Source: a bacterium (lineage in GTDB: Bacteria; Patescibacteriota; Minisyncoccia; Phycocordibacterales; Phycocordibacteraceae). Taken from it: a stretch of 58,642 nucleotides of DNA. A program made the position numbers and the translations under genes. Of this stretch, positions 1,429 through 12,535 are shown piece after piece. Within the stretch, counting starts at the first letter, position 1, and each line of letters opens with the position of its first letter. The DNA lies in the NCBI GenBank assembly GCA_021833245.1, contig JAKBGA010000002.1:1-58642 (forward strand), in the 5' to 3' direction. The notes below the pieces were generated by a model. The model saw only the letters and a program-made list of their open reading frames with translations, ran no database searches and was not told the origin of the DNA.

Positions 1429-1680
1429 TCAGCAACTGATTTTGAATCGGTGATTGAACGGTTTGAACCCACGAGGAATAAGACAAAAATAAACTCACGG
1501 CGGTCTCGCATAGGAATATGCGGGAACCAAATCAACTAATATCGGTGGAACCCGCACTCGTTGTGTACGAGAGGGTAATACCGAGGGAAGCGAAAAGCAC
1601 CCGTAGAGACTGAATGTTGATCGCCCAGAACGGGCGAAGTTACAGTCCGATCCTCTGTGTAAGCAGAGTAAACATAGATG
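1429..1680 (+). mobile_element. ORF-less group I-like intron in 23S at ~E. coli U2593/C2594
   Basis: gggttcaaaccgt (ends 1428) | cgtgagacagg (starts 1681) corresponds to GGGUUUAGAACGU|CGUGAGACAG. The 252-nt insert ends in G1680. ctcacg-gcggt (1494-1504) forms a 6-bp P10 with 3' exon cgtgag and a 5-bp P1 with 5' exon accgt ending in U.G. Several GNRA-capped hairpins are present. Confidence 0.75.
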
Positions 1681-10567: not shown

Positions 10568-10597
10568 GATGTGTGAATTCTTTTGTTCCGCCTATTC
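10568..10597 (+). other. 16S processing-stem, 5' strand
   Basis: cttttgttccgcctattc (10580-10597) is perfectly complementary over 18 bp to gaataggcggaacaaaag (12213-12230). gtgtg/cacac extends the helix. Confidence 0.75.
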
Positions 10598-12064
<1,467 letters not shown>

Positions 12065-12373: not shown

Positions 12374-12446
12374 GCACGCGTAGCTCAGTTGGTAGAGCAC
12401 CCGACTGATACTCGGGCGGTCGTAGGTTCAACCCCTACCGCGTGCA
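12374..12446 (+). tRNA. tRNA-Ile (anticodon GAU)
   Basis: Cloverleaf: acceptor gcacgcg/cgcgtgc, D arm gctc-agttggta-gagc, anticodon arm cccga-ctGATac-tcggg, T arm gtagg-ttcaacc-cctac, discriminator A. CCA is not encoded. Confidence 0.9.
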
Positions 12447-12535
12447 CCGAATCAAGTAAGAAATGCATACTTAGAGGCGCCTGTTATACCCACACCATGT
12501 CTCGAAACTGATAGAACAGGGTTATACTAAAGGAA

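Follow-up and report, generated by a model that had tools for sequence, protein, structure and literature searches.

A probable ORF-less group I intron at position 2593 of a Patescibacteria 23S rRNA gene, and a conserved hairpin over its 5′ splice site

The 23S rRNA gene analyzed here is interrupted in its peptidyl-transferase ring by 252 nt without a credible reading frame, and the locus raises the question of what these bases are, how they could be removed, and why they include a strand complementary to the exon that they interrupt. Considering the boundaries, the relatives, the helices, and the guides together, we regard the segment as very probably an intact ORF-less group I intron that would splice by the standard pathway and carries, in addition, a hairpin that we read as an occlusion switch or placeholder.

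Positions 1 to 2363 of the window (the whole 58,642-nt stretch of DNA analyzed) are a bacterial 23S rRNA gene corresponding to model positions 1465 to 2912 of Rfam RF02541, and three stretches within it have no counterpart in that model (508 to 767, 1429 to 1680, and about 1744 to 2144). The 5′ flank of the second (...gggttcaaaccgt) stops at 1428 and cgtgagacagg begins at 1681, and these flanks were matched to ...GGGUUcAGaaCGU followed by CGUGAGACAG in the alignment of the Rfam bacterial LSU model. With the 5′ flank ...GAGCUGGGUUCAAACCGU up to 1428, the 3′ flank CGUGAGACAGGUUGG... from 1681, and the Rfam consensus GGGUUcAGaaCGUCGUGAGACAG at the junction, the insert lies between Escherichia coli U2593 and C2594, and the register is unambiguous. 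The insert and its immediate exon partners are as follows.

1429 to 1680, + strand: group I intron, 252 nt, ORF-less, inserted after U2593 (sequence, homology, and covariation)
1416 to 1428, + strand: last 13 nt of the 5′ exon, 23S G2581 to U2593 (Rfam LSU alignment and sequence)
1681 to 1686, + strand: first 6 nt of the 3′ exon, C2594 to G2599, the P10 partner (sequence and guide covariation)

Both the insert and the 23S rRNA gene occur once in the assembly (586 kb, 52 contigs, 91.8% complete), and given this single copy, the insert must be removed for a working peptidyl-transferase centre. An earlier note, made from the sequence alone, had placed the exon ends at 1428 and 1681 so as to rebuild an intact 23S rRNA, had assigned the site to L2593 in the peptidyl-transferase ring, and had described an insert that follows a U and ends in G; the LSU alignment bears out the ends, the junction is U2593/C2594, and T1428 and G1680 are both present. 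The same note listed exon differences from E. coli, and these (U2586C, G2588A, and A2590C) are real, with G2604 and U2606 of helix 93 compensating for them. Its suggestion of archaeal or eukaryotic states fails for C2586, which is the bacterial consensus in the Rfam model and the usual state in the phylum. In some CPR 23S rRNA genes (L084 and L035), CGCAAG, CGCGAG, CGUAAG, or GAGCCAG replaces the near-universal CGUGAGACAG in the region of the helix 93 loop.

Several other features of the window were recorded. The third insert (about 1744 to 2144) splits the sarcin-ricin loop string between AGUA and CGAGAGGACC, and with its boundary set after U2656, it follows a U and ends in G. Just after the 5S rRNA gene, positions 2611 to 2709 were called a 99-nt tRNA by Rfam (42 bits) and not by ARAGORN, and about 30 nt are inserted in its anticodon region. 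The 16S rRNA gene (10597 to 12000) lies on the same strand 8 kb downstream of the 23S-5S pair and is followed by tRNA-Ile(GAT) at 12374 to 12448; the rRNA genes are thus unlinked, in the order 23S-5S ... 16S.

A search with the Rfam group I model had been proposed in the earlier note, and for this insert it was negative: cmscan with permissive filters over positions 1 to 2450, 1240 to 1760, and 1425 to 1690 (a 266-nt slice) gave no Intron_gpI match to 1429 to 1680 at an E value of ≤10, returning only meaningless microRNA and snoRNA matches on the hairpin described below, so that the window's copy falls short of the RF00028 gathering score. The likely reason is a 66-nt insertion inside P1, and the identity of the insert was consequently settled by anatomy and comparison. 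The other two 23S inserts scored 27.8 bits (508 to 767) and 34.7 bits (about 1744 to 2144) with Intron_gpI, both below the threshold. In a relative at the same site (L011, 213 nt), the model scored 50.4 bits against a gathering score of 50, with an identical helix assignment. ARAGORN found nothing near the insert. The statement that the insert has no ORF also held, as no credible ORF was found in 1429 to 1680 and the longest on the + strand has 31 codons' worth of protein (31 aa); an 87-aa minus-strand ORF was rejected as spurious, running as it does into conserved rRNA. The window's copy therefore lacks the endonuclease ORF of a mobile LAGLIDADG intron of the I-CreI type, and its endonuclease gene was lost or never present.

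Comparison placed the insert in a large family. Homologous introns of 213 to 756 nt occupy the same site in more than 100 Patescibacteria (CPR) 23S rRNA genes. A BLAST search of 400 phylum genomes with the insert matched 27 other genomes, with E values of 3e-10 and 9e-10 to genomes of the same order and the same family, and in the first 28 fetched loci of other genomes, the L2593 junction was occupied in 14 (213 to 756 nt) and empty in 3. The occupants share a terminal G and four blocks (AUAUCGGUGAAACCC, AAUACCGAGGGAAG, CCCGUAGAGACU, and GAAGAUAUAGUCC). A pattern scan with one genome per GTDB species gave at least 120 loci; among the 120 listed, 102 had both exon flanks at L2593, with inserts of 256 to 754 nt, and nearly all listed loci were titled Parcubacteria, Paceibacterota, Nomura-, Kaiser-, or Moranbacteria, “Saccharibacteria,” or Patescibacteria group. 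The window's insert shares with this family both the exact insertion point after U2593 and ribozyme sequence homology. Among 301 phylum genomes, the 5′ flank was found in 207 and the uninterrupted junction in 158, so interruption at or near L2593 is at most 24%, an upper bound since some cases are neighbouring insertions or contig ends. With at most about a quarter of the genomes interrupted, occupancy of the site is variable among CPR 23S rRNA genes, a point that the earlier note had proposed to check.

In a relative from the same order as the window's genome (L002), the intron measures 734 nt and carries a 150-aa ORF in the P6 loop, which matches I-MsoI and I-CreI over the full length with E values of 1e-28 to 1e-16. 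The window's intron is a member of a large Patescibacteria L2593 family whose longer members hold an I-CreI-type LAGLIDADG gene in the P6 loop. L2593 is also the site of the Chlamydomonas chloroplast Cr.LSU intron with I-CreI; the link to that system runs through the endonuclease protein of L002 only and not through the window's RNA. In one genus, two species carry the same L2593 intron (L013, 1645 to 2127, and L014, 1645 to 1934), one with about 190 extra bases in the P6 loop, mostly AT-rich tandem repeats of AATTTTT units, and no endonuclease ORF.

The anatomy is that of a group I ribozyme. The region of the insert folds far more stably than its shuffled versions (z = −7.4, reached by 0 of 200 shuffles), and the minimum-energy fold recovers P10, P2, P4 to P6, P7, P8, and P9. 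The elements downstream of the guides are listed below, all on the + strand, with the support for each in brackets.

1505 to 1524, +: P2 hairpin, 8 bp (1505-1512/1517-1524), GGAA loop (compensatory changes at 8/8 pairs)
1531 to 1536, +: P3 5′ strand, pairing with 1616 to 1621 in a pseudoknot with P7 (compensatory changes at 6/6 pairs, 94% paired)
1542 to 1584, +: P4 (1542-1546/1580-1584), J4/5, P5 (1551-1553/1573-1575), and P5a (1557-1561/1567-1571) (covariation counts)
1585 to 1602, +: P6 (1585-1587/1600-1602, plus 1590-1591/1597-1598) (alignment A1 and relatives)
1606 to 1612, +: P7 5′ strand, G1606, bulged A1607, and G1608 to G1612, pairing with 1643 to 1648 (alignment A1)
1616 to 1621, +: P3 3′ strand (alignment A1)
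1622 to 1636, +: P8 hairpin (1622-1626/1632-1636) (compensatory changes at 5/5 pairs)
1637 to 1648, +: J8/7 and P7 3′ strand, aagtta-cagtcc (conserved block in A1)
1653 to 1668, +: P9 hairpin (1653-1658/1663-1668), GUAA loop (compensatory changes at 5/6 pairs, 99% paired)

Alignment A1 comprises 36 cores from the guide to the 3′ exon, aligned by MAFFT and not fitted to structure. On it, the proposed structure pairs 92.6% of cells, compared with 31 to 44% when the partners are slid by 1 to 3 columns; 35 of the 55 pairs have changed on both sides, and 0 of 500 shuffles reach the observed values. All 51 invariant columns are kept in the window's row. P4 is invariant, the outer pair of P5 alternates between C-G and U-A (16/14), P5a is a variable hairpin, and the endonuclease ORF of relatives lies in the P6 loop. 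P7 has five invariant pairs, and its terminal pair alternates between A-U and G-C (18/17); G1608-C1647, itself invariant beside the invariant bulged A1607, is presumed to be the guanosine-binding pair. The P3 5′ strand recurs in the Rfam alignment of L011, and GUAGAGACUGAAUGU and AAGUUACAGUCC correspond to the classical R-like and S-like elements.

The guides lie immediately upstream of P2 and were tested by the exons that they face.

1494 to 1499, +: P10 guide ctcacg, pairing with 3′ exon 1681 to 1686 (sequence; tracks 3′ exon variants in 6/6)
1500 to 1504, +: internal guide gcggt (P1 3′ strand), pairing with accgt at 1424 to 1428 (sequence and exon covariation)
1680, +: omega-G, the last intron base (G in 102/102 homologues listed)

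P1 has only 5 bp (ACCGU/GCGGU), including the wobble U1428.G1500, and P10 has 6 bp here, CUCACG at 1494 to 1499 being the exact complement of 1681 to 1686. A U before the intron and a G at its end were found in 102/102 homologues among the loci listed. Introns with a GCGG guide sit in ACCGU exons in 101/101 scored cases among the loci listed, in a pattern scan that fixed the guide and left the exon free, and AACGU exons are more frequent than ACCGU among the phylum genomes listed. Relatives in AACGU exons have GCGUU(C) guides. At the other end, the variant 3′ exons CGCAAG, CGCGAG, and CGUAAG are faced by the guides UUGCG, UCGCG, and UUACG (6/6), and CGUGAG by CACG. One relative (L015) sets a GCGG guide against an AACGU exon, leaving only 3 bp.

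The insert thus combines a 5′ exon U in a U.G wobble with an internal guide, a terminal omega-G, a P10 guide adjoining the P1 guide, and a P3-P9 core in which P3 and P7 form the pseudoknot and a G-C pair of P7 adjoins a bulged base. The group I reading of the earlier note accordingly gains support from core covariation, the guides, the score of L011, and the endonucleases of relatives; its guide ctcacg-gcggt (1494 to 1504, P10 plus P1) is correct and tracks exon variants, its cgcata-ggaa-tatgcg hairpin is present as P2, and the P3-P8 core with a G-binding P7, whose absence it had named as fatal, is supported by covariation across 36 homologues. That the intron is actually spliced, with exon ligation of 1428 to 1681, we infer from the sequence.

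As an intron, it is ordinary, because the site has already been catalogued in CPR and cyanobacteria (PMC11270868; PMC1995217). In the CPR survey, 2593 is among the frequent CPR 23S insertion sites, LAGLIDADG_1-encoding and shorter ORF-less forms occur at the same sites with highly similar non-ORF parts, and introns were classed by Rfam model (Tsurumaki et al. 2024, J Bacteriol; PMC11270868). The window's intron belongs with that population in lineage, site, and mixture of ORF-bearing and ORF-less forms; it differs in that the Rfam model used there does not detect it, and the accessible part of that survey does not describe secondary structures or the exon-pairing hairpin (PMC11270868). L2593 group I introns with a single-motif LAGLIDADG gene are also known from the cyanobacteria Synechococcus C1/C9 and Thermosynechococcus (Haugen et al. 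2007; PMC1995217). These are group I ribozymes at the same 23S site, and, by description, the short P5 and the P7.1/P7.2 extension are shared with the “typical” CPR relatives (L008, L016 to L018, L023, L026, and L027) (PMC1995217). The window's copy, compared with them by description, differs in having no ORF, no P7.1/P7.2 (J7/3 is 3 nt), and a 66-nt P1-loop insertion that forms a hairpin. It is therefore a new member of a known population, and what is less ordinary is the clade-wide hairpin. Since the generic Rfam model misses this compact subfamily entirely, Rfam-based surveys undercount CPR rRNA group I introns and file them as “uncharacterised.” Many family introns (e.g., L034, L039, L050, L070, and L084) lie on contigs titled “uncultured Candidatus Saccharibacteria,” and the 2024 survey reports almost no group I introns in Saccharibacteria (PMC11270868); either the records are mislabelled or the Rfam-based detection of that survey missed them.

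The hairpin is built on the splice site itself and is followed by a linker with recurrent motifs.

1415 to 1471, +: hairpin occluding the 5′ splice site (“anti-exon” hairpin) (fold, shuffles, and covariation)
1472 to 1493, +: A-rich linker, GAGG (1473-1476) and AAGACA (1480-1485) (linker listing of relatives)

Positions 1415 to 1431 pair with 1455 to 1471 in 17 perfect bp across the splice site, a run made up of 14 exon bases (U2580 to U2593) and intron bases +1 to +3. Beyond it, the stem extends through G1432.U1454 and then 1435 to 1441 with 1445 to 1451, giving a nearly perfect duplex of about 25 bp that folds alone at −34.3 kcal/mol, and the 17-nt complementary run exceeds those of all 500 shuffles. 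The last 5 nt of exon 1416 to 1428 take part in P1 with the guide and all 13 in this alternative hairpin, so the two helices, using the same exon bases, are mutually exclusive. In relatives, GAGG directly follows the hairpin and AAGACAUCA directly precedes the P10 guide, sometimes with an optional hairpin between the two motifs.

Among the loci listed, the hairpin is present in 81 of the 82 introns whose guide lies at least 55 nt from the splice site. Registered on the exon, 79 distinct sequences among the loci listed gave the following counts.

Pair at 2586: C-G 73, U-A 4, A-U 1
Pair at 2588: G-C 43, A-U 35
Pair at 2590: C-G 86%
Position 2591: unpaired 78% (C.A 38, C.C 19, C.U 5)
Pair at 2592: G-C 97%
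Pair at 2593: U-A 81%, U.G 6%
Intron bases +1 to +3: 85 to 89% paired, against 49 to 67% in shuffled sequences
Intron base +4: G.U 73%
Intron bases +7 to +12: paired and covarying

The hairpin partners of exon positions 2586 and 2588 thus covary with them. In an independent MAFFT alignment of 37 compact hairpins (A2), 86.3% of cells pair, compared with 21 to 54% when slid, and 12 of the 24 hairpin pairs are compensatory. G.U pairs are frequent, which suggests that the structure forms in RNA of this strand; a DNA-level inverted repeat, such as an endonuclease target-site mimic, was for the same reason rejected as the main reading.

The energetics bear on whether the window's copy still works. 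Opening exon 2590 to 2593 in the hairpin costs a median of 8.5 kcal/mol with the C2591 mismatch and 14.7 kcal/mol where C2591 pairs; the window's copy, having C2591 paired, also costs about 14.7, some 6 kcal/mol above most relatives. With P1 forced in a nested fold, the structure is about 25 kcal/mol worse than the minimum and P10 is lost, so the open state is beyond the reach of nested energy models. By these energies, P1 could be reached cheaply only through a local swap of four bases to the guide with both hairpin ends kept, that is, a pseudoknot. On paper, P1 is disfavoured in the window's copy, and this copy may splice slowly or need help.

Such figures could also be read as decay, with the core intact, the perfect hairpin locking the 5′ splice site, and the gene or assembly not representing a working ribosome. 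The extra opening cost due to the paired C2591 and the absence of the endonuclease ORF fit this reading; against it, the genome, 92% complete, has no other 23S rRNA gene, the window's row retains all 51 family-invariant columns, and five independent relatives (L057, L076, L095, L130, and L147) also have 16 to 17 perfect bp, indicating that the perfect form of the hairpin persists in evolution. We consider an impaired copy unlikely.

Even less probable is an intervening sequence cut by RNase III or another nuclease without religation, which would leave a fragmented 23S rRNA, with the hairpin as the substrate and the core as a relic. The nearly perfect duplex of roughly 25 bp does fall in the size class of RNase III substrates, and CPR 23S rRNA genes may also hold RNase III-type intervening sequences according to the CPR survey (PMC11270868). 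The known RNase III intervening sequences described there, however, lie at other sites (23IS2 and 23IS4) and not in the peptidyl-transferase ring (PMC11270868). Cleavage of the duplex would take away G2581 to U2593, which is essential rRNA. A sequence of this class would have a stem joining its two ends at a surface helix and no ribozyme core, whereas the insert's ends are not complementary and its core is complete. Every group I helix and both guides are also under clear purifying and compensatory selection, which a relic would not retain.

The least credible reading takes the long hairpin for the functional P1, with a guide of 13 to 16 nt, and denies that GCGG is the guide. It can draw on the hairpin's covariation with the exon at 2586 and 2588 and on L015, where the hairpin follows exon A2590 and GCGG does not. 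In the hairpin, however, the partner of the splice-site U2593 is A in 81% of the sequences listed and G in only 6%, whereas the choice of a group I 5′ splice site rests on a U.G wobble. GCGG provides that wobble in every copy, adjoins on its 5′ side a P10 guide that follows the 3′ exon variants in 6/6, and holds the guide's place in relatives without the hairpin.

The reading that we prefer, an intact group I intron with a hairpin over its 5′ splice site, would operate as follows. The guide GCGGU (1500 to 1504) would form P1 with exon ACCGU, with the wobble U1428.G1500; exogenous guanosine bound at the G-C pair of P7 would attack after U1428; the adjoining guide CUCACG (1494 to 1499) would hold the 3′ exon as P10; and omega-G1680 would then enter the G site, so that exon ligation would restore helix 93. 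Before this, the first ~45 intron bases would fold back and take G2581 to U2593 and intron bases +1 to +12 into the hairpin, with the splice-site U in a U-A pair, so that neither the 5′ splice site nor the strand of helix 93 would be accessible before the ribozyme core and 3′ exon have been made. The closed state is under selection, since the partners of invariant exon bases are conserved, and the open state likewise, since the P1 and P10 guides track the exons; selection on both states is the pattern expected of a switch. Accordingly, we infer that the hairpin is a 5′ splice-site occlusion switch or placeholder helix. It could instead tether the exon for the second step or direct the excised intron in reverse splicing.

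A more specific proposal is tentative, and we would sooner doubt it than assert it: the anti-exon hairpin may be a built-in conformational gate, of a kind undescribed for group I introns, that yields to P1 once the core and the 3′ exon are in place. During transcription, the hairpin would form first and, acting as a stand-in for helix 93, hold both the peptidyl-transferase strand G2581 to U2593 and the 5′ splice site. It would give way to P1 only with a finished core and 3′ exon, through P10 next to the guide, and the C2591 mismatch, kept in 78% of the copies listed, could be the weak point for invasion by the GCGG guide. A gate of this type would link the two steps of splicing to each other, and perhaps to ribosome assembly, where the only 23S rRNA gene has several introns. 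In a variant of this scheme, the freed 13-nt strand would guide the excised intron to intron-less 23S rRNA for reverse splicing without an endonuclease.

A comparable system is the alternative 5′ exon helix P(-1) of Tetrahymena pre-rRNA, reported by Woodson and Cech (1991) to compete with P1 for the last exon bases and so to modulate forward and reverse splicing. P(-1) is formed by exon sequences alone, whereas the strand that competes in the hairpin found here comes from the intron, crosses the splice site, pairs over about 25 bp, and is conserved clade-wide. Literature searches gave no description of a group I intron that encodes a complement of its 5′ exon, which is not proof of absence.

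The hairpin, conserved and covarying in more than 80 independent sequences, is an alternative structure that occurs naturally, is carried by the intron, and hides the 5′ splice site. Should its role be to gate splicing or to substitute for helix 93, it would illustrate how minimal bacteria produce ribosomes safely from single-copy rRNA genes with multiple introns, and it would also be a small, naturally occurring template for designing conditional group I splicing.

Strands that pair with the exon may be more widespread among CPR rRNA introns. In the same 23S rRNA gene, the third intron has no similar exon complement (best run, 6), and the first (508 to 767, at about L1931) has a 12-nt perfect complement of its own 5′ exon, 492 to 503 with 553 to 564, which exceeds all 500 shuffles (maximum, 11) and ends 4 nt before the splice site.
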